Shown: positions 15,506-27,666 of the stretch, piece after piece | Layout of the letters: every line of letters starts with the position of its first letter | Numbering within the stretch: position 1 is the first letter of the stretch | Sequence record: SRR31156797_7382 | DNA length: 37,877 nucleotides | Strand: one strand, 5' to 3' | The notes under the pieces: generated by a model | Seen by the model: the letters and a program-made list of their open reading frames with translations, nothing else | What the model was told of the DNA's origin: nothing | Database searches by the model: none | Position numbers and translations under genes: made by a program

Positions 15506-15540
15506 TATCTTGTAAAACTATGTGTTTTTTTATATGTTTG
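15506..15540 (+). promoter_or_regulatory. padR promoter with overlapping 19-bp operator
   Basis: TATCTTGTAAAACTATGTG (15506-15524) covers the TTG -33 element; TATGTTTG -7 box at 15533-15540. Confidence 0.7.
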
Positions 15541-15547
15541 TTAAACC

Positions 15548-15901
15548 ATGAATCAAGAAATAAACGAATATTTTATAACCAAATGGAAATCCCAGTTTAA
15601 GAAGGGACTTTTGGAATATATTATCTTGTTATTGTTAAGATCTAAACCGTGTTACGGTTATGAATTAATTAGCGAGATGAATCAATTTACATCCCTCGAA
15701 ATTGCTGAAGGAACCATTTATCCTCTTTTAAATAGATTGAAAAAGGAGAAACTGGTAACTTCGGAATGGGCAGAAATGGATACTGGTATTCCAAGAAAAT
15801 ACTATAAACTTACCGATGAGGGGATTTCGCATCTTGCAGTGATGCGAGAATATGTTGATTCTTTAAATCTATCTATTAAGAGAATAGAAGAAAGTGTTTA
15901 A
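15548..15901 (+). CDS. PadR-family transcriptional regulator
   Basis: KG.LE..IL.LL....YGYEL, EGTIYPLLNRL, W......PRKYY.LT..G. Confidence 0.95.
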   Translation: MNQEINEYFITKWKSQFKKGLLEYIILLLLRSKPCYGYELISEMNQFTSLEIAEGTIYPLLNRLKKEKLVTSEWAEMDTGIPRKYYKLTDEGISHLAVMREYVDSLNLSIKRIEESV

Positions 15902-15932: not shown

Positions 15933-17429
15933 ATGAAAGATTATATTTTATCCTTAGATCAGGGAACTTCAATTTCAAAGGCAATTTTATTTAATAAAAA
16001 AGGTGAAATAGTTGCCCAAGTTCAAAAGGAGTATGAACAGTATTATCCTAAGCCTGGTTGGATCGAGCAGGATGCTAAGGAAATATGGTATTCACAAGCT
16101 TCAGTTGCTGAAGAGGTGCTTGCCAAAGCGGGTTTAACTGGTAAGGATATTGCAGGATTGGGAATCACAAATCAACGTGAAACTACAATTATCTGGGATA
16201 GGGAAACAGGTGAACCAATCAATAATGCGATTGTTTGGCAGGACAGAAGAACTTCTCATATTTGTGACGATTTAAAAGGGAAGGGATTCTCTAAAAAAAT
16301 AAAAGAAAAAACTGGTTTAATTTTAGATGCTTTTTTCTCAGCAACTAAAATAAAATGGCTTCTTGATAATATTGAAGGAGTCAGAGAGAAAGCTGAACAA
16401 GGCAAATTGGCTTTTGGAACCGTTGATAGCTGGTTAATTTGGAAACTTACCAAAGGTGAAGTTCATGTTACAGATGTTTCCAATGCCAGTAGAACCATGC
16501 TCTATAATATTCATGATCTTTGTTGGGATGAAGAATTATTAGAGTTAATGGACATTCCTAAATCCATTCTTCCAAAAGTTTGTTCTTCTAGTGAAATTTA
16601 TGGATACACTAAAAGATCTATGTTTAGTGAAGAGATTCCGATTTCCGGAATTTGTGGCGATCAGCAAGCAGCACTATTTGGTCAGGCTTGTTTTGAAAAA
16701 GGTATGGTTAAAAATACCTACAATACTGGTTGCTTTATGTTGATGAATACGGGGACCGAACCAGTTGAGTCGAAAAATGATTTGATAACAACAATAGCAT
16801 GGGGAATTGGAGATAAGGTTACCTACGCTTTAGAAGGAAGTGTATTTATTGGAGGTGCTGTTGTTCAATGGTTGCGCGATAGTTTAAATCTGATTCATTC
16901 AATTGAAGAAATTGAATCGCTCGCTTTAACCGAAAAGGATAATGGAGGTGTGTATATCGTTCCTTCATTTACAGGCTTGGGAGCACCTTATTGGGATCAG
17001 TATGCCAGAGGAACCTTTTGGGGCTTAAATATGGGAACTAGTGCAGGTCATATTGCACGTGCCTCATTAGAATGTATTGCTCATCGTTCTTCAGATGTAC
17101 TAAAAACAATGGAGGCTGATTCTGGTATTAAAGTAGAACAGTTAAGAGGTGGAGGCTTAATGGCCAATGATACTTTATTGCAATATCAAGCTGATTTTCT
17201 GAATTTGCCTATTGTTAGACCTGAAATTAAGGAAATTACTGCTGTTGGAGCAGCTTATTTAGCCGGATTAGGTGTTGGTTTTTGGAATAGTGTTGAGGAG
17301 ATTCAAGATCATTGGAAACTTGATAAGGAGTACGATGTTAAAATGGATAAGGAAATTGTTAAGCATCATAAGAAATATTGGGAAAAGGCTGTAAGTCGAT
17401 CACAAAATTGGATAGATGCTGACGATTAA
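15933..17429 (+). CDS. Glycerol kinase paralog (FGGY) with degenerate ATP-binding motifs
   Basis: Keeps TNQRETT, WQDRRT, GDQQAA but has DQGTSISK, YNTGCF and LRGGG in place of [14 protein letters not shown] and LRVDGG; ATG 15933 (GTG 15894 possible). Confidence 0.85.
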   Translation: MKDYILSLDQGTSISKAILFNKKGEIVAQVQKEYEQYYPKPGWIEQDAKEIWYSQASVAEEVLAKAGLTGKDIAGLGITNQRETTIIWDRETGEPINNAIVWQDRRTSHICDDLKGKGFSKKIKEKTGLILDAFFSATKIKWLLDNIEGVREKAEQGKLAFGTVDSWLIWKLTKGEVHVTDVSNASRTMLYNIHDLCWDEELLELMDIPKSILPKVCSSSEIYGYTKRSMFSEEIPISGICGDQQAALFGQACFEKGMVKNTYNTGCFMLMNTGTEPVESKNDLITTIAWGIGDKVTYALEGSVFIGGAVVQWLRDSLNLIHSIEEIESLALTEKDNGGVYIVPSFTGLGAPYWDQYARGTFWGLNMGTSAGHIARASLECIAHRSSDVLKTMEADSGIKVEQLRGGGLMANDTLLQYQADFLNLPIVRPEIKEITAVGAAYLAGLGVGFWNSVEEIQDHWKLDKEYDVKMDKEIVKHHKKYWEKAVSRSQNWIDADD

Positions 17430-17450: not shown

Positions 17451-17486
17451 AAAAGGTTATTTCACAATTGGAATAACCTTTTTTTT
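17451..17486 (+). terminator. Terminator of the padR-glpK-like unit
   Basis: AAAAGGTTATT / AATAACCTTTT followed by a T-run. Confidence 0.8.
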
Positions 17487-17545: not shown

Positions 17546-17596
17546 TATCTTTTTTTACTATGCACATTGTATTGCTAAGTATTTTATTTAGATTTG
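17546..17596 (+). promoter_or_regulatory. glpT-operon promoter with operator(s)
   Basis: CACATTGTATTGCTAAGTA (17563-17581), weaker copy at 17546-17564; TAGATTTG -7 box at 17589-17596, 19 nt after TTG. Confidence 0.75.
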
Positions 17597-17639
17597 CCAT
17601 TGTTCTTAAGGATTAAGATAATCTATAGATGGTTAACTT

Positions 17640-17669
17640 ATCTCTTAAGCATTATTAGAGATTTTTTTT
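17640..17669 (+). terminator. Leader terminator-like hairpin upstream of glpT
   Basis: ATCTCT...AGAGAT stem followed by T8; weak, but at the same position as the glpD leader terminator. Confidence 0.5.
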
Positions 17670-17677
17670 ACAACACA

Positions 17678-17696
17678 TACATAGTTAAACAATGTG
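17678..17696 (-). promoter_or_regulatory. Downstream operator copy (inverted), glpT leader
   Basis: TACATAGTTAAACAATGTG; reverse complement CACATTGTTTAACTATGTA fits the operator consensus. Confidence 0.7.
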
Positions 17697-17728: not shown

Positions 17729-17875
17729 ATGAAAGATGTCAAACTTGATGAACAGCTAGAGGATCGTTTATACTTTTTTTTCTCGAAAATTCTTGATTTA
17801 CAAAAGCAAGTAAAATTAAAAGAAAAGAATGTTGAGTATAGCAGTATTTGGGAGTTTTGGGATGGTGAATTATAA
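17729..17875 (+). CDS. Unannotated 48-aa small protein MKDVKLDEQLEDRLYFFFSKILDLQKQVKLKEKNVEYSSIWEFWDGEL
   Basis: Paralog of 22414..22557 (21/48 identical, synonymous codon changes, same stop position). Confidence 0.8.
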   Translation: MKDVKLDEQLEDRLYFFFSKILDLQKQVKLKEKNVEYSSIWEFWDGEL

Positions 17876-17937: not shown

Positions 17938-19275
17938 ATGATCGGATTTTTAAAGCCAGCTCCTCATAAGGAGTTGATGCCTGAGGATAATGTTGACTCT
18001 GCATACAAACGATTGCGATGGCAAGTGTTTGTTGGTATATTCTTAGGGTATGCAGGTTATTACCTTGTACGAAAGGTTTTCTCATTGGCAATGCCTGATT
18101 TAGTGAATTTAGGATATTCAAAAACTCAATTGGGATTTGCTTTATCGGGAGTTTCCATTGCATATGGATTAAGTAAGTTCATTATGGGGAATGTCTCAGA
18201 TAGGAGTAATGCACGTAGGTTTCTAACTCTTGGATTAGTTCTTTCTGCAATTACTATGATAGTTATGGGAGTTTTGCCTGTGGCTACATCTTCAATTGCG
18301 ATAATGTTTGTTCTATTATTGATGAATGGATGGTTTCAAGGAATGGGATGGCCTCCTTGTGGACGTGTAATGGTTCATTGGTTTTCCATTCGTGAAAGAG
18401 GAACTAAAATGTCAATTTGGAATGTTGCTCACAATGTAGGTGGAGGTATTATTGGTCCTTTAGCTATTTTGGGTGTTGCCATTTTTGTTGATTGGCAAGC
18501 AAAACTATACTTTCCTGGTATAGTTGCTTTAGTAGTTGCCTTTATAGCATGGCTTTTAATACGTGATACACCACAATCTTGCGGTTTACCAAATATCGAA
18601 AAATATAAGGATGATTATCCTGAATCTTATTCGGAGAAGTTTGAGAAGGAAATGACTGCAAAACAAATATTCCTTGAATATATTCTTAAGAACAGACTTT
18701 TATGGATGATTGCAATAGCGAATGCTTTCGTTTATTTAGTGCGTTACGGTGTGCTAGATTGGGCTCCTCTATATTTAGAAGAGGCTAAAGGTTTTTCAAT
18801 TGAAGAGACGGGATGGGCCTATTTCGCATATGAGTGGGCAGGAATACCAGGAACATTACTTTGTGGATATTTAAGTGATACTGTTTTTAAAGGAAAACGT
18901 GCTCCTGTAAGTATCATTTATATGGTTTTTGTAACTATTTCAGTATTCATGTACTGGATAAGTGATTCTATTGTTGCGAATTCTATTGCATTGGTTTGTA
19001 TAGGTTTCTTGATCTATGGACCTGTAATGTTAATAGGTGTACATGCTCTTGATTTGGTTCCGAAAAAAGCAGCAGGAACTGCTGCAGGACTAACAGGCTT
19101 ATTTGGCTATATGGGAGGAGCGTTGTTTGCAAATATAGCGATGGGTGCTGTTGTGGATAAATGGAGTTGGTCAGGTGGTTTCATTGTTCTTTTAGCGGCT
19201 TGTGTAATGTCAATACTCTTTATAGCTATTTCATGGTTACAAGAGTTGAGAGGTCATAACGGAATTCATCATTAG
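17938..19275 (+). CDS. glpT: Glycerol-3-phosphate:phosphate antiporter (MFS)
   Basis: GIFLGYAGYYLVRK, WFQGMGWPPC, WN.AHNVGG, YL.RYGVLDW, GTAAG.TGLFGY. Confidence 0.96.
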   Translation: MIGFLKPAPHKELMPEDNVDSAYKRLRWQVFVGIFLGYAGYYLVRKVFSLAMPDLVNLGYSKTQLGFALSGVSIAYGLSKFIMGNVSDRSNARRFLTLGLVLSAITMIVMGVLPVATSSIAIMFVLLLMNGWFQGMGWPPCGRVMVHWFSIRERGTKMSIWNVAHNVGGGIIGPLAILGVAIFVDWQAKLYFPGIVALVVAFIAWLLIRDTPQSCGLPNIEKYKDDYPESYSEKFEKEMTAKQIFLEYILKNRLLWMIAIANAFVYLVRYGVLDWAPLYLEEAKGFSIEETGWAYFAYEWAGIPGTLLCGYLSDTVFKGKRAPVSIIYMVFVTISVFMYWISDSIVANSIALVCIGFLIYGPVMLIGVHALDLVPKKAAGTAAGLTGLFGYMGGALFANIAMGAVVDKWSWSGGFIVLLAACVMSILFIAISWLQELRGHNGIHH

Positions 19276-19328: not shown

Positions 19329-20639
19329 ATGAAAAAAATTAATCTAAAAAACCTATTATTTGGTGCAGTAGCTTTGTGCAGTGTAGGCTTGGTTGGGTGT
19401 GAAGATGATACTCCTGATTACAATGAATTTAATTACTACAAAACGTATCCTTTGAAAGAACTTAGTGCTGAAGCTAAAGCGGTAAGAGATTATGTGAAAA
19501 GTGATATTGTTATTGCACATAGAGGTTCAACGTTTTGGGCTCCTGAAGAAACCGAAGCGGCTTTCCGTTGGGCTAGAAATATGGGTGCTGATTACCTTGA
19601 GATTGATTTGCAAAGAACTAAAGATGGTGTATTATTAGCACTTCATGATAATAACTTGAGAAGAACATCTAATATTGAGAGTATGTTCCCAGGAAAAGAA
19701 GATTATCCTGTTAGTTATTTTACTTTAGCTGAATTGAGAAAGCTTGATGCTGGTGCTTGGTTTAATGTTGATGTGCCAGAGAACGCAAGAGAATCATTTG
19801 TTGGAGAGAAAATTTCTACTCTTGAAGAGGTGTTGAAAATTGCTGAAGGATATAGAATTCTTAGAGATGTAAATGGAGAGCCAGTTAAAGATATGACAAA
19901 ACTTACTGAAGCAGGTGAGTGGGCTGGATATTATGAATTTGAAGTTGATCCTCAGGATAATGGAAATCGTCCAGGTGTATACGCCGAGACAAAAGAACCA
20001 TATTTATTTTCTGGAATGGAAGCTGATTTGGCAACTTTCTTAACTGCTGAAGGATGGAATGTAACTTCTTCTCCAAAAGTTATTCCTACAATTGCAGGTA
20101 AAGTTGATGTAGCGAATACAAATGGTCGTTTTATTTTGCAATCATTCTCTAGACAATCAATTGTTAACCTTGAAAAGGAATTGCCAGGTGTGCCTAAGTG
20201 TATGTTGTTATGGGAAGATGAAAGTGCATCTTATGTAAGACCTTCTAATACAATTGAGTCTTTGGCTGAGTTTATCAATTTCTCTGTAGAATATAACTGT
20301 CATATTGCAGGTCCTTCAATCGAAGGTAAACCAAATGGTTACCCAGATCTTACTGAGCCTTGGATGTGTGAAATGTACCACAGAGCAGGAATGCTTGTAC
20401 ATGCTTATTCATTTGATACTGAAGATCAGTTAAGAAAGTATAATGGAGATTACTTTTATGGTGGTGTATCTCGTTTCGATGATCCTAATAGAACTGTACA
20501 AGGAAACTTTAATTATGATGTAAATCCAAATATGTTTATCGATGGTGGATTTACTAATCTTACAGACCTTTCTATGAATTACCAGAAGCGTGAAGTAGTT
20601 GGAACTGCTCAAGAAGTGTTGGACGCTTTAGGTTATTAA
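19329..20639 (+). CDS. glpQ: Glycerophosphodiester phosphodiesterase lipoprotein (GlpQ-like)
   Basis: Lipobox LVGC; IAHRG, E.D...TKDG....HD, QSF motifs; follows glpT. Confidence 0.88.
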   Translation: MKKINLKNLLFGAVALCSVGLVGCEDDTPDYNEFNYYKTYPLKELSAEAKAVRDYVKSDIVIAHRGSTFWAPEETEAAFRWARNMGADYLEIDLQRTKDGVLLALHDNNLRRTSNIESMFPGKEDYPVSYFTLAELRKLDAGAWFNVDVPENARESFVGEKISTLEEVLKIAEGYRILRDVNGEPVKDMTKLTEAGEWAGYYEFEVDPQDNGNRPGVYAETKEPYLFSGMEADLATFLTAEGWNVTSSPKVIPTIAGKVDVANTNGRFILQSFSRQSIVNLEKELPGVPKCMLLWEDESASYVRPSNTIESLAEFINFSVEYNCHIAGPSIEGKPNGYPDLTEPWMCEMYHRAGMLVHAYSFDTEDQLRKYNGDYFYGGVSRFDDPNRTVQGNFNYDVNPNMFIDGGFTNLTDLSMNYQKREVVGTAQEVLDALGY

Positions 20640-20675: not shown

Positions 20676-22016
20676 ATGTTTAAAAAATTATATATAGCTG
20701 CCTTATTAACGGGAGTGCTAGCATCAGGGGCAAATGCTCAGGAAAATGAAATATCAGTTGAAAATCCAAATGGAGGAATTAAATTAACTTCTGCTGATAA
20801 AGAATATCAAGTAAGTATAAATGGTAGAATTTATATGGATGGTGTTCACTATTTTGATGATGTAACTGATTTAAGTTCGGATGTATCTGTTAGTGATATT
20901 CGCTTTGGAACAAGTGTGAGATGGGGAAAATGGAGTGCTAAGGTAAACGTTGGCTTTGGTAATGATGAGGTGAAAATTAAAGATGCATTCTTAAGATATC
21001 ACCATAAAAAGAATAGCACTTTTACTGTTGGTAATTTCTTTGAGCCATTTGGAATTGAGGCGGCAGAGTCAAGTAAAAACTTAAGATTTATTGGTTCCTC
21101 TAATACAACTCAATCAATGGGTATTGGTCGTGGAGTTGGTTTGGGATATACGTACTACACTCAAAAATTCTATGGTTCAACTGGTATTTTTGCAGGAACA
21201 GTTGATAATAATAGTAAAGGTGATCAAGGATTTTCTACTACTTCGAAAGTTGCATATACTCCGATTCAAAATGAAGATTTTGTATTCCAAGTTGGAGGAT
21301 CGTTTACTTACAGAAAGCCAGAAGCTAATGGTTTTAACGAAAGCTTCAACGATGATGATTACAATCGTGTAGTTGAATTCGCAGCGGGTCCTGAGCACAA
21401 ATTCTTAAACGCTACCATGAATGGTGCGCAGTCTGATATGAGGTTTAATTTCCAAACATTAGCATTAAAGGGTTCATTTATGTTGCAAGCAGAGTATACT
21501 CAAGCTAAAGTAACTCGTGATGATGATTATGTGTCAAAATTAATGAAAGATGGTCCATTGTATTACGTTACTTATGCATGGCCTGTAGCTCCTAAAGATT
21601 ATCCTGATTGGTATGGTGAGCTTCGTGATATAGAAACAAAAGCTTACTATGTACAAGCTGGATTTTTACTAGGCGATGATTATAAATATAACTCATCAAC
21701 TGCATATATTAAGAGACCTAAAGCTGGTGCTTTCGAATTTCTTGTACGTTACGATCATACAGATTTAAATGATGTTGATGGAACTTATTTTAATGGTAGC
21801 TATGGTCCTGCAGATTTAAATGCTGCGTTGGGTGGCGCTGGTAATATGAGTGTTCAAGGAGGAAAAGCTGATACCTATAGCTTAGCTGTAAATTACTATT
21901 TAAGCTCTAATGTAATGTTTCGTTTGAATTATGACTATATGGATGTTGATAATCAAAAATATCCTTTAGATAAGAATATCGGAGTATTAAAAGGACGAAT
22001 TCAAGTTAACTTTTAG
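20676..22016 (+). CDS. OprO/OprP-like (phosphate-selective) porin
   Basis: Signal peptide, GRIYMD, IKDAFL, G.F.EPFG.E, QAEY, terminal R.QVNF. Confidence 0.8.
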   Translation: MFKKLYIAALLTGVLASGANAQENEISVENPNGGIKLTSADKEYQVSINGRIYMDGVHYFDDVTDLSSDVSVSDIRFGTSVRWGKWSAKVNVGFGNDEVKIKDAFLRYHHKKNSTFTVGNFFEPFGIEAAESSKNLRFIGSSNTTQSMGIGRGVGLGYTYYTQKFYGSTGIFAGTVDNNSKGDQGFSTTSKVAYTPIQNEDFVFQVGGSFTYRKPEANGFNESFNDDDYNRVVEFAAGPEHKFLNATMNGAQSDMRFNFQTLALKGSFMLQAEYTQAKVTRDDDYVSKLMKDGPLYYVTYAWPVAPKDYPDWYGELRDIETKAYYVQAGFLLGDDYKYNSSTAYIKRPKAGAFEFLVRYDHTDLNDVDGTYFNGSYGPADLNAALGGAGNMSVQGGKADTYSLAVNYYLSSNVMFRLNYDYMDVDNQKYPLDKNIGVLKGRIQVNF

Positions 22017-22243: not shown

Positions 22244-22277
22244 CACCTTGCATTACTAAGTAATTTATTTAGCTTTG
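22244..22277 (+). promoter_or_regulatory. glpD promoter with overlapping operator
   Basis: CACCTTGCATTACTAAGTA (22244-22262); TAGCTTTG -7 box at 22270-22277; aligns without gaps to the glpT promoter. Confidence 0.75.
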
Positions 22278-22331
22278 TATTGTTCGAGTTTATAATTAGA
22301 AATTGATTTATTCAAACTAGCTTATAAAACG

Positions 22332-22357
22332 ATTGGAAGAAAGCTTCCAATTTTTTT
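22332..22357 (+). terminator. Leader terminator upstream of glpD
   Basis: Perfect ATTGGAAG-AAAG-CTTCCAAT hairpin followed by a T-tract. Confidence 0.7.
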
Positions 22358-22365
22358 GATAGAAC

Positions 22366-22384
22366 TACATAGCAATACAAAGTG
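22366..22384 (-). promoter_or_regulatory. Downstream operator copy (inverted), glpD leader
   Basis: TACATAGCAATACAAAGTG; reverse complement CACTTTGTATTGCTATGTA is 17/19 identical to the glpT promoter site. Confidence 0.75.
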
Positions 22385-22413: not shown

Positions 22414-22557
22414 ATGGAAGACATGAAATTTGATATGCAAATGGAAAATCGCCTTTATTCTTTTTTCTTAGACCTTTTGGCCGGACAAAATGATAAGCTT
22501 GTTCAAGAAGATGAACAAAATGGAAGTATCTGGAAATACTGGGAAGAGGAATTATAA
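22414..22557 (+). CDS. Unannotated 47-aa small protein MEDMKFDMQMENRLYSFFLDLLAGQNDKLVQEDEQNGSIWKYWEEEL
   Basis: Paralog of 17729..17875; shared RLYxFF and SIWxxWxxEL-stop. Confidence 0.8.
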   Translation: MEDMKFDMQMENRLYSFFLDLLAGQNDKLVQEDEQNGSIWKYWEEEL

Positions 22558-22596: not shown

Positions 22597-24144
22597 ATGT
22601 ATAGAGAGGTTGAAAGTGTAAAACAGAAATGGGATGTGATCATTGTAGGTGGTGGAGCGTCAGGCTTGGGAGCAGCTATTGAGTCGGTAACTCGTGGATA
22701 CAAAACACTACTTCTGGAGCAGGATGATTTTGCTAAAGGAACTTCGAGTAGAAGTACCAAGCTTGTTCATGGTGGCGTTCGTTATCTTGCTCAGGGAAAT
22801 ATATCATTGGTTTTGGAAGCTTTAAGAGAAAGAGGTTTGTTAAAGCAAAATGCACCTCACTTGGTAAAAGATCAATCATTTATTATTCCTAATTATACAT
22901 GGTGGGGAACACCTTACTATACTTTAGGTTTAACAATGTACGACCTAATGGCTGGGAAATTAGGTTACGGGCGATCATTGCCTTTCTCTAAAAAAAGAAC
23001 GCTAAAGCATATTCCTACACTAAAAAGCGAAAATCTTTGTGGTGGAGTTGTTTATCACGATGGACAATTTGATGATTCCAGATTGGCAATTAATATGTGT
23101 CAAACTTTTGTAGAAAATGGTGGAGTTGCTATCAACTACATGAAGGTTGAAGGATTTGAAAAGAAGAATGGAAAAATTTCAGCAGTGAAAGCTACTGATT
23201 TGGAGAGTGGAACAAAATATACGATAGAAGGTAAAGTAGTTTTGAATGCAACGGGAGTTTTTGTTGATAAAGTTATCAAAATGGACGAACCTAAAGCAAA
23301 AGACATCGTAAAGGTCAGTCAAGGTGTACATTTGGTTTTAGATAAGGAATTTGTGCCGGGAGATTATGCAGTGATGATTCCTAAAACCAGTGACGGTCGT
23401 GTTCTTTTTGCTGTGCCATGGCATAACAAAGTTGTTGTAGGAACCACCGATGTACACAAAGATTGTGCAGAACTAGAACCTAGAGCGTTGGAAGAGGAAG
23501 TTGATTTTATTTTAGAGACTGCGGGTAGATTCTTATCAAAACCTCCTAAAAGATCAGATGTAAGAAGCGTATTTGCTGGTTTAAGACCATTGGCAGCACC
23601 AAGTGGCGATGGTAAAAAAACAAAGGAAATATCTAGAGGACATAAGATAGTTGTTTCCGATTCGGGAATGGTAACCTTAACTGGTGGTAAATGGACTACT
23701 TACCGTCAAATGGCAGAAGATGTAATGAATACTGTTGCCAAAACAGCAGGATTACAAGAGAAGAAGTCACAAACAAGAAATCTAAAAATTCATGGATATA
23801 AGCTAAATCCAGATTTAAGCAATCCCATGTATTTCTATGGCTCCGATGAAGAGAAGATTTTAGATTTAGCTAAAAAAGAAGATGGTTTGGATGAGTATTT
23901 AAGCTCAAAGCTAAAAGTGCTGAATGCACAAGTGGTTTGGGGAGCTAGATATGAAATGGCCAGAACCGTTGAAGATATATTATCTAGAAGAACACGTTCA
24001 TTACTTCTTGATGCTAAGGAGAGTATAGAGATGGCTCCAAAGGTAGCGGAATTAATGGCTAAGGAATTAGGATACGATAAACAATGGGAAGAGAATCAAG
24101 TAAAGGAATACAAAAACTTGGCCTCTCGATACATTTTGATATAA
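22597..24144 (+). CDS. glpD: FAD-dependent glycerol-3-phosphate dehydrogenase/oxidase
   Basis: GGGASG, GTSSRSTKLVHGGVRYL, DGQFDDSRL, AGLRPL, GGKWTTYR.MAE. Confidence 0.95.
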   Translation: MYREVESVKQKWDVIIVGGGASGLGAAIESVTRGYKTLLLEQDDFAKGTSSRSTKLVHGGVRYLAQGNISLVLEALRERGLLKQNAPHLVKDQSFIIPNYTWWGTPYYTLGLTMYDLMAGKLGYGRSLPFSKKRTLKHIPTLKSENLCGGVVYHDGQFDDSRLAINMCQTFVENGGVAINYMKVEGFEKKNGKISAVKATDLESGTKYTIEGKVVLNATGVFVDKVIKMDEPKAKDIVKVSQGVHLVLDKEFVPGDYAVMIPKTSDGRVLFAVPWHNKVVVGTTDVHKDCAELEPRALEEEVDFILETAGRFLSKPPKRSDVRSVFAGLRPLAAPSGDGKKTKEISRGHKIVVSDSGMVTLTGGKWTTYRQMAEDVMNTVAKTAGLQEKKSQTRNLKIHGYKLNPDLSNPMYFYGSDEEKILDLAKKEDGLDEYLSSKLKVLNAQVVWGARYEMARTVEDILSRRTRSLLLDAKESIEMAPKVAELMAKELGYDKQWEENQVKEYKNLASRYILI

Positions 24145-24505: not shown

Positions 24506-26005
24506 ATGGAAGACAAGTTTATTTTAGCTTTAGACCAGGGAACTACAAGTTCCAGAGCAATCGTTTTCAATAAGAAGGGCGAGATGATAAGCACGGCGCA
24601 GAAAGAATTCACCCAAATTTTTCCACAGCCGGGCTGGGTAGAGCATGATGCAAACGAAATTTGGTTTACGCAAGCTGGAGTTGCTGCAGAAGCAATTACA
24701 CATGCAGGAGCTAATGGAAAGAGTATTGCGGGGATTGGTATCACTAACCAGAGAGAGACTACTGTTGTATGGGATCGTGAGACAAGTGAACCAATTTATA
24801 ATGCAATTGTGTGGCAGGATCGTCGTACGTCTAAGTATTGTGATGAGTTAAAGACTCAGGGACATGCTGATATGATTCAGGATAAAACAGGTTTAATTAT
24901 CGACTCGTATTTTTCTGGAACAAAAGTAAAGTGGATTCTTGATAATGTAGAAGGAGCTCGCGAAAAAGCAAAGGCAGGAAAATTGGCTTTTGGTACTATT
25001 GATAGCTGGCTAATCTGGAAATTAACTCAAGGTAAAGTGCATGTAACTGATGTTACTAATGCAAGTAGAACTTTACTTTATAACATCAAAACCTTAGAGT
25101 GGGATACTGAAATGTTAGAACTTCTTGATATTCCTGAAAGTATGTTACCAGAGGTTAAATCTTCTTCAGAAGTATACGGACATACTGTAACCACTTTATT
25201 TGCTCACGAGGTACCTATTGCTGGTATTGCAGGTGATCAGCAAGCAGCTACATTCGGTCAAATGTGTATTAAACCAGGATCGGTTAAAAATACTTACGGA
25301 ACAGGATGTTTCATGCTATGTAATACAGGTAATAAGCCAGTAAAATCGAACAACAATTTGTTAACAACTATTGGTTGGCAAATTAATGGCGAAACTACTT
25401 ACTGTCTTGAAGGAAGTATTTTCATGGGAGGCGCAATTGTACAGTGGTTACGCGATGGTTTAGGAATTATTAAATCATCTCCTGAGGTTGAAGAACTAGC
25501 AGGTTCGGTTGAAGATAACGGAGGTGTATTCCTGGTTCCTGCACTTACAGGTTTAGGAGCTCCACATTGGGATCAGTATGCAAGAGGAACAATTGTAGGA
25601 TTGACAAGAGGTGCAACTTCAGCACACATCGCAAGAGCAGCATTGGAAGGTATCGCATTCCAGACTATGGATGTATTGAAAGCAATGGAAGCAGATGCAG
25701 GAATTAAGATTAACGAACTTCGTGTTGATGGTGGTGCTGCAATTAATAACCTATTAATGCAATTCCAGTCGGATGTATTGGATGCTCCGGTTTACAGACC
25801 AAAAACTCTTGAAACAACTGCATTAGGTGCTGCATATTTAGCAGGTTTGGCAGTTGGATATTGGGATAGTATAGATGATATAAAGAGCCAGTGGGCAATG
25901 GATCGTAAGTTTGAGCCAGAAATGCCTAAAGAAAAATCTGAGAAATTGATTAAAGGTTGGGACAAAGCCCTAGGTCGTTCAAAAGATTGGGATACTGAAG
26001 CTTAA
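24506..26005 (+). CDS. glpK: Glycerol kinase
   Basis: All canonical motifs: [45 protein letters not shown]. Confidence 0.97.
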
Positions 26006-26120: not shown

Positions 26121-26855
26121 ATGAGTGAATTTGTTGCAGAATTTATAGGAACCATGTTACTGATATTATTAGGTAACGGAGTAGTTGCAAATGTTGTATT
26201 GAATAAAACAAAAGGAAACAATAGCGGTTGGATCGTAATCACAATGGGGTGGGGATTGGCCGTATTTACAGGTGTTGCAGTTGCAGGTCCTGTTTCAGGA
26301 GCTCACATTAACCCTGCCGTAACTATTGGATTGGCATTAGCAGGTATGTTTGCCTGGTCAAAAGTAGGTCTTTTTATAGCGGCTCAAATGTTAGGAGCAG
26401 CTATGGGTGCATTCCTTGTTTGGTTAATGTATCGCGATCATTTTAATTCTACTGAAGATGGTGGAGCTAAATTGGCTTGTTTCTCTACAGGTCCAGCTAT
26501 CAGAAACATTGGAAGTAACGCAATTAGTGAGGTTATTGGTGCTTTTGTATTGATGTTCGTTATCTTTTATTTGGCTGGTCCTTCTCTTGAAGCTGCTGGA
26601 ATGGAAGGTGCTAAAATTGGATTAGGAACTTTAGGTGCTTTACCTGTTGCCTTATTGGTTGTTGCTATTGGTCTTTCGTTAGGCGGAACTACTGGATATG
26701 CAATTAATCCTGCTAGAGACTTAGGTCCAAGAATCATGCATGCTATTCTACCTATGCAAAATAAAGGTACAAGCGACTGGGCGTATTCATTGGTGCCTAT
26801 CGTTGCTCCAATTGTAGGAACTGCCATTGCAGCATTCTTATTTATGTATCTATAA
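26121..26855 (+). CDS. glpF: Glycerol uptake facilitator (aquaglyceroporin)
   Basis: SGAHINPAVT and GYAINPARDLGPR (NPA-R-D) motifs. Confidence 0.96.
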   Translation: MSEFVAEFIGTMLLILLGNGVVANVVLNKTKGNNSGWIVITMGWGLAVFTGVAVAGPVSGAHINPAVTIGLALAGMFAWSKVGLFIAAQMLGAAMGAFLVWLMYRDHFNSTEDGGAKLACFSTGPAIRNIGSNAISEVIGAFVLMFVIFYLAGPSLEAAGMEGAKIGLGTLGALPVALLVVAIGLSLGGTTGYAINPARDLGPRIMHAILPMQNKGTSDWAYSLVPIVAPIVGTAIAAFLFMYL

Positions 26856-26925: not shown

Positions 26926-26943
26926 CCCAAAAATTTGAATCTA

Positions 26944-27666
26944 ATGAAAAAATCAGTCCTAAAAATATCGTTATTATTTGCATTGATAATCATATTTGCA
27001 TCAAATATGAATGTAAATGCACAAGGAAAAGTAACAGTTAGTCCATCGGTAACTACTCGTCATTATTGGAGGGGTATTATGGTAAGTAATACAGCTAATT
27101 TTGAAATGGATTTAGCTTACACTAACAATAATTTTACATTCGGAGCCTGGGGTGGATATGCATTTGACAACACCTACTCAGAGTTCGATTTCCATGTAGG
27201 ATATAAGTTTAGTGATCATTTTAATGTTGCAGTTTGGGATTTATTTGCAAATCGCGACAGAGCTTCTATTGACGATTACAACTATCTTGATTTAGACAGA
27301 AGTACAACAAATCACTTGATAGATGCGAGTTTAAATTTTTACGTTAATGAGAAATTTCCATTAAGTGTTTGTGTAAGTACTATGCTTTACGGACGCGATT
27401 TGGATGAGAATGGTGATCAAAACTATTCAACTTACGTGGAATTTGGATATCCTGTTAAAATAGGTGGAGAAACAGTTTCTCTATTTGCAGGTTTAAATGC
27501 TTTCGAAGATCAAGTATATGGAGAGAGCTTTGGTTTTGTAAATATTGGAGCTACTGCTACAAGAGAAATCAAGATTAATGATAACTTTTCTTTAAATGCA
27601 TGGGCTAAGATTGGTATTAACCCACAGGCAGAAACTGCTAACCTAATTTTGGGTATTGGTTTCTAA
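26944..27666 (+). CDS. Outer-membrane beta-barrel protein (TorF-like putative porin)
   Basis: Signal peptide, Y.WRG, G.WG, E.D..VGY, STYVE.GY, terminal Phe. Confidence 0.7.
   Translation: MKKSVLKISLLFALIIIFASNMNVNAQGKVTVSPSVTTRHYWRGIMVSNTANFEMDLAYTNNNFTFGAWGGYAFDNTYSEFDFHVGYKFSDHFNVAVWDLFANRDRASIDDYNYLDLDRSTTNHLIDASLNFYVNEKFPLSVCVSTMLYGRDLDENGDQNYSTYVEFGYPVKIGGETVSLFAGLNAFEDQVYGESFGFVNIGATATREIKINDNFSLNAWAKIGINPQAETANLILGIGF

Follow-up and report, generated by a model that had tools for sequence, protein, structure and literature searches.

A glycerol kinase paralog with a damaged nucleotide site as a probable glycerol-sensing partner of a PadR regulator in marine Bacteroidales

A 37,877-nt stretch of DNA from sequence record SRR31156797_7382 (the window), whose nearest relatives are Marinifilum, carries two glycerol kinase genes. 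One, termed K1, is canonical; the other, K2, directly follows a gene for a short PadR-type regulator. K2 is probably a partner of this PadR that senses glycerol or glycerol-3-phosphate (G3P) and controls the glycerol (glp) regulon, like DhaQ/DhaS of Lactococcus. It is most likely a glycerol sensor rather than a metabolic enzyme because the glycerol pocket is kept, the ATP pocket is damaged and the gene always stands behind a regulator with likely sites at glycerol genes. The original prediction had proposed a pseudokinase or co-opted ligand sensor. As to the sensor, its comparative expectations are borne out, and further support comes from an operator, a missing GlpR and a partner slot held by HAAS proteins in related loci; loss of K2 activity, binding of K2 to PadR and the sensing step are what we infer from the sequences.

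K2 is an intact, full-length open reading frame (ORF) of 498 amino acids, as had been noted, and its orthologs are of about 498; an alternative upstream GTG start at 15894 is possible. K2 is 61% identical to K1, 58% to GlpK of E. anophelis (6ude) and 51% to E. coli GlpK (1bo5). An AlphaFold model (pLDDT 82.9) displays the full GlpK fold, with a Foldseek TM score of 0.92 to 6ude, and the orthologs contain Pfam domains PF00370 and PF02782 and no other. The motifs listed earlier are all present: DQGTSISK in the phosphate-1 (P1) loop, YNTGCF in PHOSPHATE2 (P2), a shortened LRGGGL in ADENOSINE, and DAFFS, with NQRE, WQD and GDQ retained. Residues are numbered by E. coli GlpK from the 1bo5 alignment. 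The P1 changes are Ser15Ile and Arg17Lys, and the canonical motifs are broken by Asn at position 266 (PHOSPHATE2) and by an ADENOSINE Asp-Gly-Gly-Ala that is one residue short. The PHOSPHATE2 loop has no insertion of the kind that extends it in EhACK, an acetate kinase of Entamoeba. These changes are not due to chance, since Gly266, Asp409, Gly411, Ala412 and Tyr135 are invariant in 189/189 canonical kinases of the set. DAFFS, cited earlier as an altered DSYFS, is a mixed case: the Ser to Ala change is neutral and common in canonical kinases, and Tyr135Phe belongs to the glycerol site, with Phe in 27/65 K2 sequences and Tyr kept in 38/65. Overlooked earlier, along with the palindromic operator described below, was Arg369 (Met in the window K2), which is Arg in 129/129 non-redundant canonical kinases and is replaced by Met or Leu in K2, with Arg in 0/27 non-redundant sequences. 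In E. coli GlpK the loop around this residue contacts a neighbouring subunit; in K2 that loop is remodelled.

The adenosine motif had been described as one residue shorter with its Asp lost. The shortening stands, but loss of Asp alone does not. MAFFT places the gap at Asp409; an ungapped register in which Gly411 is lost fits better because of the readings in relatives, namely V-D-G-M-P in sister kinases, A-G-G-M-I in basal K2 and V-D-G-A/T in two K2 members. Asp409 as the key lesion was rejected, as the register across lineages points to Gly411. In this inferred register, Gly occupies position 411 in 189/189 canonical kinases and in 0/72 members of the padR-linked group, and Leu takes its place in the window K2. 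In EhACK, which depends on pyrophosphate (PPi), the ADENOSINE Gly is likewise replaced by a bulky residue and the adenosine pocket is blocked, according to the available text of PMC5517563. Since G-M is common to basal K2 and to a lineage termed K2' (below), the comparison suggests that the Gly411 change was the first lesion. By a motif alignment made in this analysis, Gly411 is equivalent to ADENOSINE Gly331 of Methanosarcina acetate kinase, where the accessible part of PMC4390882 gives activity down 6-15-fold with Ala and 117-200-fold with Gln. Because the catalytic residues are kept and such changes lower activity, K2 is better described as crippled than as demonstrably dead.

The clustering of changes at the nucleotide site, also claimed earlier, is borne out by a column test. 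The columns compared are those with at least 95% invariance across 129 non-redundant canonical kinases. In 27 non-redundant K2 their retention is 0.96 at the glycerol site, 0.92 in the rest and 0.64 in the nucleotide-side motifs, whose columns were chosen partly on background knowledge and after the lesions were known. Eight of the 20 nucleotide-side columns are retained below 0.7, and basic residues there number 0.74 per K2 sequence vs 1.99 in canonical kinases. The P1 loop varies within the K2 group (TSISK, TASSK, LGTSVAS, LETTVAS). Five GlpK specificity residues are named in the available text of PMC3245297 (Arg83, Glu84, Tyr135, Asp245, Phe270), and the window K2 has four, the exception being Phe for Tyr135. 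Within the main clade, Asp245His and Gly12Glu each occur in a single protein.

K2 is tightly linked to padR. Gly266Asn and the shorter adenosine motif are common to 41 of the best 120 protein matches. A glpK match is found in 54 of 96 Marinifilaceae genomes and K2 in 27 of the 54; in all 27, padR lies directly upstream, in keeping with the pairing first seen in the window, K2 is intact and a canonical GlpK is also present. The same PadR (E<1e-55) occurs in 30 Marinifilaceae genomes, including these 27; in the other three (G462, G464, G416; L015, L018) the contig stops just behind padR, which in G416 is encoded on the minus strand, 164 nt from where the contig begins. Neither K2 nor PadR occurs in the 24 remaining glpK-positive genomes. 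In Sunxiuqinia elliptica, PadR and K2 are consecutive accessions, MHA7110231.1 and MHA7110232.1. Through gene-order shuffles (L229, L017, L168) K2 stays beside padR, not K1, and it directly adjoins K1 in some lineages. The pair forms a terminator-bounded unit in the window. K2 has features of a co-regulator of the DhaQ or Gal3 type: an intact enzyme copy alongside, a kept substrate site and a fixed genetic link to a same-pathway transcription factor, the last by way of the predicted binding of PadR to the palindrome. RNA-library contigs from three runs cross the padR-K2 junction and were given no weight, because contigs cannot show transcription. A metagenome scan returned canonical kinases only, used as background, and a PadR pattern had 0 matches in viral contigs. 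Two candidate PadR fusions, P0014 and P0023, were rejected as internal duplications, no search having been aimed at longer forms.

Purifying selection on K2 is strong, as judged from the sequences. K2 and K1 have median ratios of nonsynonymous to synonymous divergence (dN/dS) of 0.020 and 0.022, with a K2 range of 0.010-0.050, in the 10 of 120 pairs with dS 0.1-1.2, none of which includes the window K2; over all 120 pairs, K2 dN is about twice that of K1. The ortholog comparison that had been proposed therefore finds the lesions common to padR-linked orthologs and held under selection (median dN/dS as above), which excludes both a simple isozyme and recent decay.

A palindrome of 19 bp, with consensus TACCTAGCAATGCTAGGTA, is found repeatedly in front of padR and within glp leaders and, from its distribution, is likely the PadR operator. 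A weight matrix built from 17 sites in other genomes, with a seed pattern written after the window sites were known, matches the window five times at 17.5-22.2 bits, at padR (one), glpT (two) and glpD (two); the next match reaches 10.5 bits, and shuffled sequence yields 0.2 matches at 12 bits or more. Matches of at least 16 bits occur at 35/40 padR loci vs 0/112 canonical-only loci (1.05 Mb), many of these controls being from other taxa; the five padR loci lacking one are G218 and four short loci. In five whole genomes the exact pattern gives 25 distinct sites, 19 of them at glp genes. Eleven genomic sites lie outside the main cluster; five precede remote glpT or glpA genes, and the other six are about at the level of a control pattern (8 matches). 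PadR is thus a predicted regulator of the glp regulon. Among five genomes with the padR-K2 pair, none has DeoRC and none has GlpP over the cut-off; a DeoR-type gene lies within ~2.6 kb of glpK in 4/5 Bacteroidales with a canonical kinase only. A sigma-70 promoter scan of the window was below chance. Strong operator-like palindromes are also present in biotin-dependent carboxylase/decarboxylase clusters (L241:1501 in G301, L243:1501 in G002), and may reflect chance, another PadR or extra regulon members.

The sites are of two types. Bacteroidetes promoters have a -7 consensus of TAnnTTTG, and 53 non-redundant sites (type A) have a -7-like box of this form downstream and would cover the -33 region, as predicted for the site at 15506..15524 in the padR promoter, whose position relative to padR recurs in most lineages. 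Another 38 sites (type B) have no such box; 32/38 lie 7-8 nt after a run of at least five T, vs 7/53 of type A, a count in which a permissive -7 pattern assigned window site 17678 to class A. For this excess Fisher's test gives p = 8e-12, a value that overstates independence because the sites come from related genomes. The K2' lineage and four HAAS-linked operons have a type B site behind the partner gene. In HAAS-PadR operons of other Bacteroidota the operator lies 7 nt after a T run (L223:6967, L224:6249, L225:751, L227:6417), and with this same layout, terminator-coupled PadR sites may be general for the class.

The window PadR is a short stand-alone protein with PF03551 as its sole family over the cut-off. 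At the six next-nearest PadR loci the downstream gene encodes a HAAS-like protein (6/6 matches, 4 over the cut-off), at more distant ones a PspC protein. The same palindrome, in the same operator layout, precedes the HAAS-linked relatives, and therefore appears tied to the PadR subfamily. HAAS-PadR pairs have been proposed as signalling dyads (PMC11237479), and Listeria LftR requires the co-regulator LftS for induction (bioRxiv 10.1101/2023.07.27.550809), both as given in the accessible parts of these papers. In the glp subfamily the downstream slot is held by K2 through several gene-order shuffles, and no HAAS domain is detected there, the small ORFs having no Pfam match and the K2 orthologs only the two kinase domains. 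A complex prediction for K2 with two PadR copies scored 0.05 and 0.02 (mark 0.32) and counts neither way.

A survey of 401 sampled Bacteroidales genomes, with follow-up family searches, detected two further kinds of padR-linked kinase. The K2' lineage, with motif VDGMP and intact P1 and P2 loops, has the order padR-K2'-glpK-glpF in G270, G301, G394, G407 and G408. In G218 (L168, G218:C3, 6898-10045), padR is followed by two tandem degenerate kinase copies, both with a wrecked P1 loop beside Asp245Asn, and then by glpD-glpT-glpQ-porin, with the canonical kinase elsewhere; by these residues the tandem copies are the clearest pseudokinases of the set. FastTree places all 72 sequences of this group in one clade (support 0.90), 65 of them, many being proteins without genomic context, in the main clade. 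K2 nests inside GlpK, and its clade spans several families. IQ-TREE, run without motif columns (44 of 267 rows), supports the main clade at 100/99 and the main clade plus K2' at 91/57. A canonical glpK in G301 has an internal TGA (L165 8717-10219), by decay or assembly error. A separate FGGY kinase group (L169-L174; DQSTSATK, GDSH), found in several Bacteroidales, served as outgroup; one copy lies beside a second DeoR gene (G235:C80).

Several observations weigh against a non-enzymatic sensor or against a uniform PadR regulon. K2 scores over the GlpK equivalog cut-off (TIGR01311, 705.5 vs 590.35). Asp10, Thr13, Thr267 and Gln314 are kept in 65/65 K2 sequences, Asp245 in 64/65 and Asn415 in 63/65, a retention that exceeds the needs of a dead enzyme. 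K2' keeps the P1 and P2 loops and is frameshifted in G409 (L234 1865-3347; decay or assembly error). A single origin for the three kinds of padR-linked kinase is neither rejected nor shown (p-AU 0.40). As to the operator, the late seed pattern and the control taxa noted above count here too. G218 has no exact site, only weak operator-like ones, and no site stands at its canonical glpK operon; the operator is missing from several Ancylomarina-type padR promoters, and the window glpK1 has none of its own. The Ancylomarina-type promoters (L184, L188, L195, L199) display a different palindrome, ATCTCGATATTGAGAT.

The term pseudokinase fits K2 as a protein with degraded nucleotide motifs under purifying selection. 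It does not fit in the strict sense of lost catalytic aspartates, as the window K2 has Asp10 and Asp245. Given their retention across the clade, K2 is therefore no classical pseudokinase and may be a slow kinase, the original prediction being supported in part. An unlikely reading, though one with real substance, is indeed that K2 is a slow, ATP-dependent enzyme that primes G3P sensed directly by PadR or another factor, its lesions only throttling it. The nearly invariant Asp10, Asp245, Thr13, Thr267 and Asn415 favour this, as do the intact loops of K2' and the Gly-to-Ala or Gln changes in acetate kinase, which in the accessible text lower and do not abolish activity. Asp245Asn in both G218 copies and the single Asp245His and Gly12Glu proteins speak against it; moreover, canonical K1 could itself make G3P, and the 117-amino-acid PadR has no obvious ligand domain, while its relatives have a partner.

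It is improbable that K2, without catalysis of its own, regulates K1 as part of a hetero-oligomer, as an inhibitor or as a scaffold and is merely co-regulated by PadR. K2 always occurs with a canonical copy (27/27), is 61% identical to it and lies beside it in some lineages, but follows padR when gene order is shuffled (L229, L017, L168), sits in a terminator-bounded unit with padR and has the Arg369 loop, the inter-subunit contact of the E. coli enzyme, remodelled. There is little to recommend an active kinase that uses another phosphoryl donor (PPi, polyphosphate or another nucleoside triphosphate), as EhACK does. The EhACK-like ADENOSINE Gly lesion, as the available text describes it, and the kept catalytic aspartates agree with such an enzyme, but nucleotide-side basic residues fall from 1.99 to 0.74 rather than rise and the P1 loop drifts freely, therefore a poor fit with a new donor; the lesions also differ by lineage, and the fixed padR link is left unexplained. 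A kinase for a different small substrate is highly improbable: Tyr135Phe in 27/65 would suit it, yet Tyr135 remains in 38/65, Arg83, Glu84, Asp245 and Phe270 of the five specificity residues are kept, K2 is nested inside the GlpK tree and the changes are on the nucleotide side. A recent duplicate in decay, which the doubled amino-acid divergence relative to K1 and one frameshifted relative might suggest, can be virtually dismissed, and a pseudogene was rejected, by dN/dS of 0.010-0.050 in all 10 usable pairs, with K2 intact in 27/27 genomes and a clade that spans several families.

Table 1. Features of the padR-K2 locus and adjoining glp genes in the window
Feature	Position	Strand	Remarks
Putative PadR operator, type A	15506..15524		17.5 bits by position weight matrix; 8 nt upstream of Bacteroidetes -7-type box
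-7-type box of padR promoter, TATGTTTG	15533-15540		Bacteroidetes type
padR, 117-amino-acid stand-alone winged-helix regulator	15548..15901	+	Pfam PF03551, E 3.6e-21; conserved pair
K2, glycerol kinase paralog	15933..17429	+	Glycerol pocket intact except Tyr135Phe; nucleotide site damaged
K2 Gly266Asn codon	16722-16724		
K2 shortened adenosine motif	about 17148-17159		
Terminator-like hairpin	17451..17482	+	Closes padR-K2 unit
Putative operator, type A, at glpT promoter	17563..17581		21.0 bits
-7 box of glpT promoter, TAGATTTG	17589-17596		
Putative operator, type B, glpT leader	17678..17696		19.8 bits; 8 nt after T8 run behind hairpin
Conserved 48-amino-acid ORF, copy 1 (RLY-FF ... SIWEFW--EL)	17729..17875	+	First gene before glpT
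glpT, G3P transporter	17938..19275	+	TIGR00712 over cut-off; putative regulon member
glpQ-like glycerophosphodiester phosphodiesterase	19329..20639	+	Below family cut-offs
Phosphate-selective porin O/P family	20676..22016	+	PF07396
Putative operator, type A, at glpD promoter	22244..22262		22.2 bits
-7 box of glpD promoter, TAGCTTTG	22270-22277		
Terminator-like hairpin and T run inside glpD leader	22331..22359	+	Kept in relatives
Putative operator, type B	22366..22384		21.0 bits; 8 nt after terminator T run
Conserved 47-amino-acid ORF, copy 2	22414..22557	+	First gene before glpD
glpD-like G3P dehydrogenase	22597..24144	+	Best matches G3P oxidase/dehydrogenase models, below cut-offs
K1, canonical glycerol kinase	24506..26005	+	Every motif intact
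glpF, aquaglyceroporin	26121..26855	+	TIGR00861 over cut-off

The order in the window is padR-K2 / glpT-glpQ-porin / glpD / glpK-glpF (Table 1). Behind glpF, at 26935-27666, lies a gene for a 243-amino-acid putative outer-membrane protein with a weak TorF-like match. Proteins of this type follow glpF in many canonical Bacteroidota glp operons, and the protein is a possible glycerol or G3P channel.

Between the operator pairs are leaders of ~80-90 nt (about 22280-22359 and 17600-17670), each with a hairpin of variable sequence followed by a terminator-like hairpin and T run; the structure is kept in relatives. The leaders may be attenuators or small RNAs, and they have no Rfam match. Control of their terminators by GlpP was rejected, as GlpP is below the cut-off in 5/5 genomes with the pair. 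The small ORF (RLY-FF ... SIWE[FY]W--EL) stands first before glpD and glpT across Marinifilaceae and is truncated in two Ancylomarina-type loci. It has no match in Pfam or the ESM Atlas, and 7 full-length representatives among 1.84 billion at 50% clustering. No copy was detected at the K2', G218 or G496 loci, and the core system can therefore do without it.

On the sensor reading, padR-K2 would control the glycerol regulon in place of the usual DeoR-type GlpR. PadR would bind the palindrome and repress padR-K2, glpT, glpD(-glpK-glpF) and glpABC. At type A sites it would do so by masking the -33 region, at type B sites from a position directly after the leader terminators, where it may gate read-through. 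The short PadR has no ligand domain; its relatives would take their signal from the downstream HAAS protein, and K2 would fill that role. FGGY kinases close their cleft upon sugar binding, according to the accessible part of PMC3245297, and therefore K2 would have a conformational signal ready. Glycerol or G3P would close the K2 cleft, with turnover slow or nil, and ligand-bound K2 would alter the hold of PadR on DNA, by release or anchoring, and so induce the regulon. A bolder and decidedly tentative version is a two-protein cytoplasmic system in which a PadR from the HAAS, or membrane-stress, class exchanged its partner for a glycerol kinase blind to ATP and gained control of the glycerol regulon in marine Bacteroidales, covering promoters and gating read-through 7-8 nt behind terminators, with the 48-amino-acid protein, made first from the induced operons, tuning the circuit.

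In the literature searched, with most subscription papers and all supplements (possible regulon tables) outside its scope, no description of a PadR-glycerol kinase pairing in Bacteroidetes was found. Among the papers listed on glycerol kinases and pseudokinases, judged by title and opening of the abstract, and on pyrophosphate-dependent glycerol kinases, none reports such a protein. Enzyme paralogs as co-regulators are known; the K2-PadR pairing, the operator and the regulon appear undescribed. If the proposal is true, K2 would be a sensor derived from an FGGY/glycerol kinase, and its system a third route of glycerol-gene control beside GlpR and GlpP. The pair offers a clean soluble test case for signal input to a short PadR without ligand domain, and the lineages, which have lost the ATP site to different degrees, a natural series of steps from enzyme to sensor; the operator and candidate ligands are available, and cultured type strains exist in Marinifilum, Labilibaculum, Ancylomarina and Sunxiuqinia. 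As K2 proteins are annotated as plain glycerol kinases, models of metabolism may mistake a sensor for an enzyme.

Compared with GlpK (6ude, 1bo5), K2 has the same fold, glycerol pocket and catalytic aspartates, but differs in Gly266Asn, the absence of Gly411, the eroded P1 loop, Arg369Met and Tyr135Phe. As in EhACK, a bulky residue stands at the ADENOSINE glycine of an ASKHA protein; EhACK, in what its source makes available, is catalytically active and its PHOSPHATE2 loop is longer, whereas K2 has lost basic residues and is linked to a regulator gene. The predicted gene set, glpK, glpF, glpD, glpT, glpQ and glpABC, is that of DeoR-type GlpR and of GlpP, to which PadR and K2 are unrelated. With the HAAS-PadR dyads and LftR/LftS, as far as the accessible text goes, the padR-K2 system shares a short stand-alone PadR and a co-encoded partner needed or proposed for input. 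K2, unlike those partners, is a soluble enzyme paralog without HAAS or membrane domain, and the predicted targets are a carbon regulon rather than envelope or efflux genes.

The original prediction had drawn the analogy of yeast Gal3 and Gal1, in which a kinase paralog with a small nucleotide-site indel acts as sugar sensor beside the active copy. The likeness in kind holds for K2, but Gal3 has the GHMP fold, acts through Gal80/Gal4 and needs ATP, whereas the ATP site of K2 may be unusable. By analogy, the closest functional precedent, closer than Gal3, is DhaQ/DhaS of L. lactis, where DhaQ is a paralog of DhaK. DhaQ is a dihydroxyacetone-binding co-activator of DhaS (Christen et al. 2006, as cited in PMC7590123 and PMC4325133, each available in part), that is, a macromolecular co-regulator of a same-pathway transcription factor, as is proposed for K2. 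The components differ: a Dha kinase fold and a TetR activator in L. lactis, an ASKHA/FGGY fold and a PadR that is probably a repressor here.

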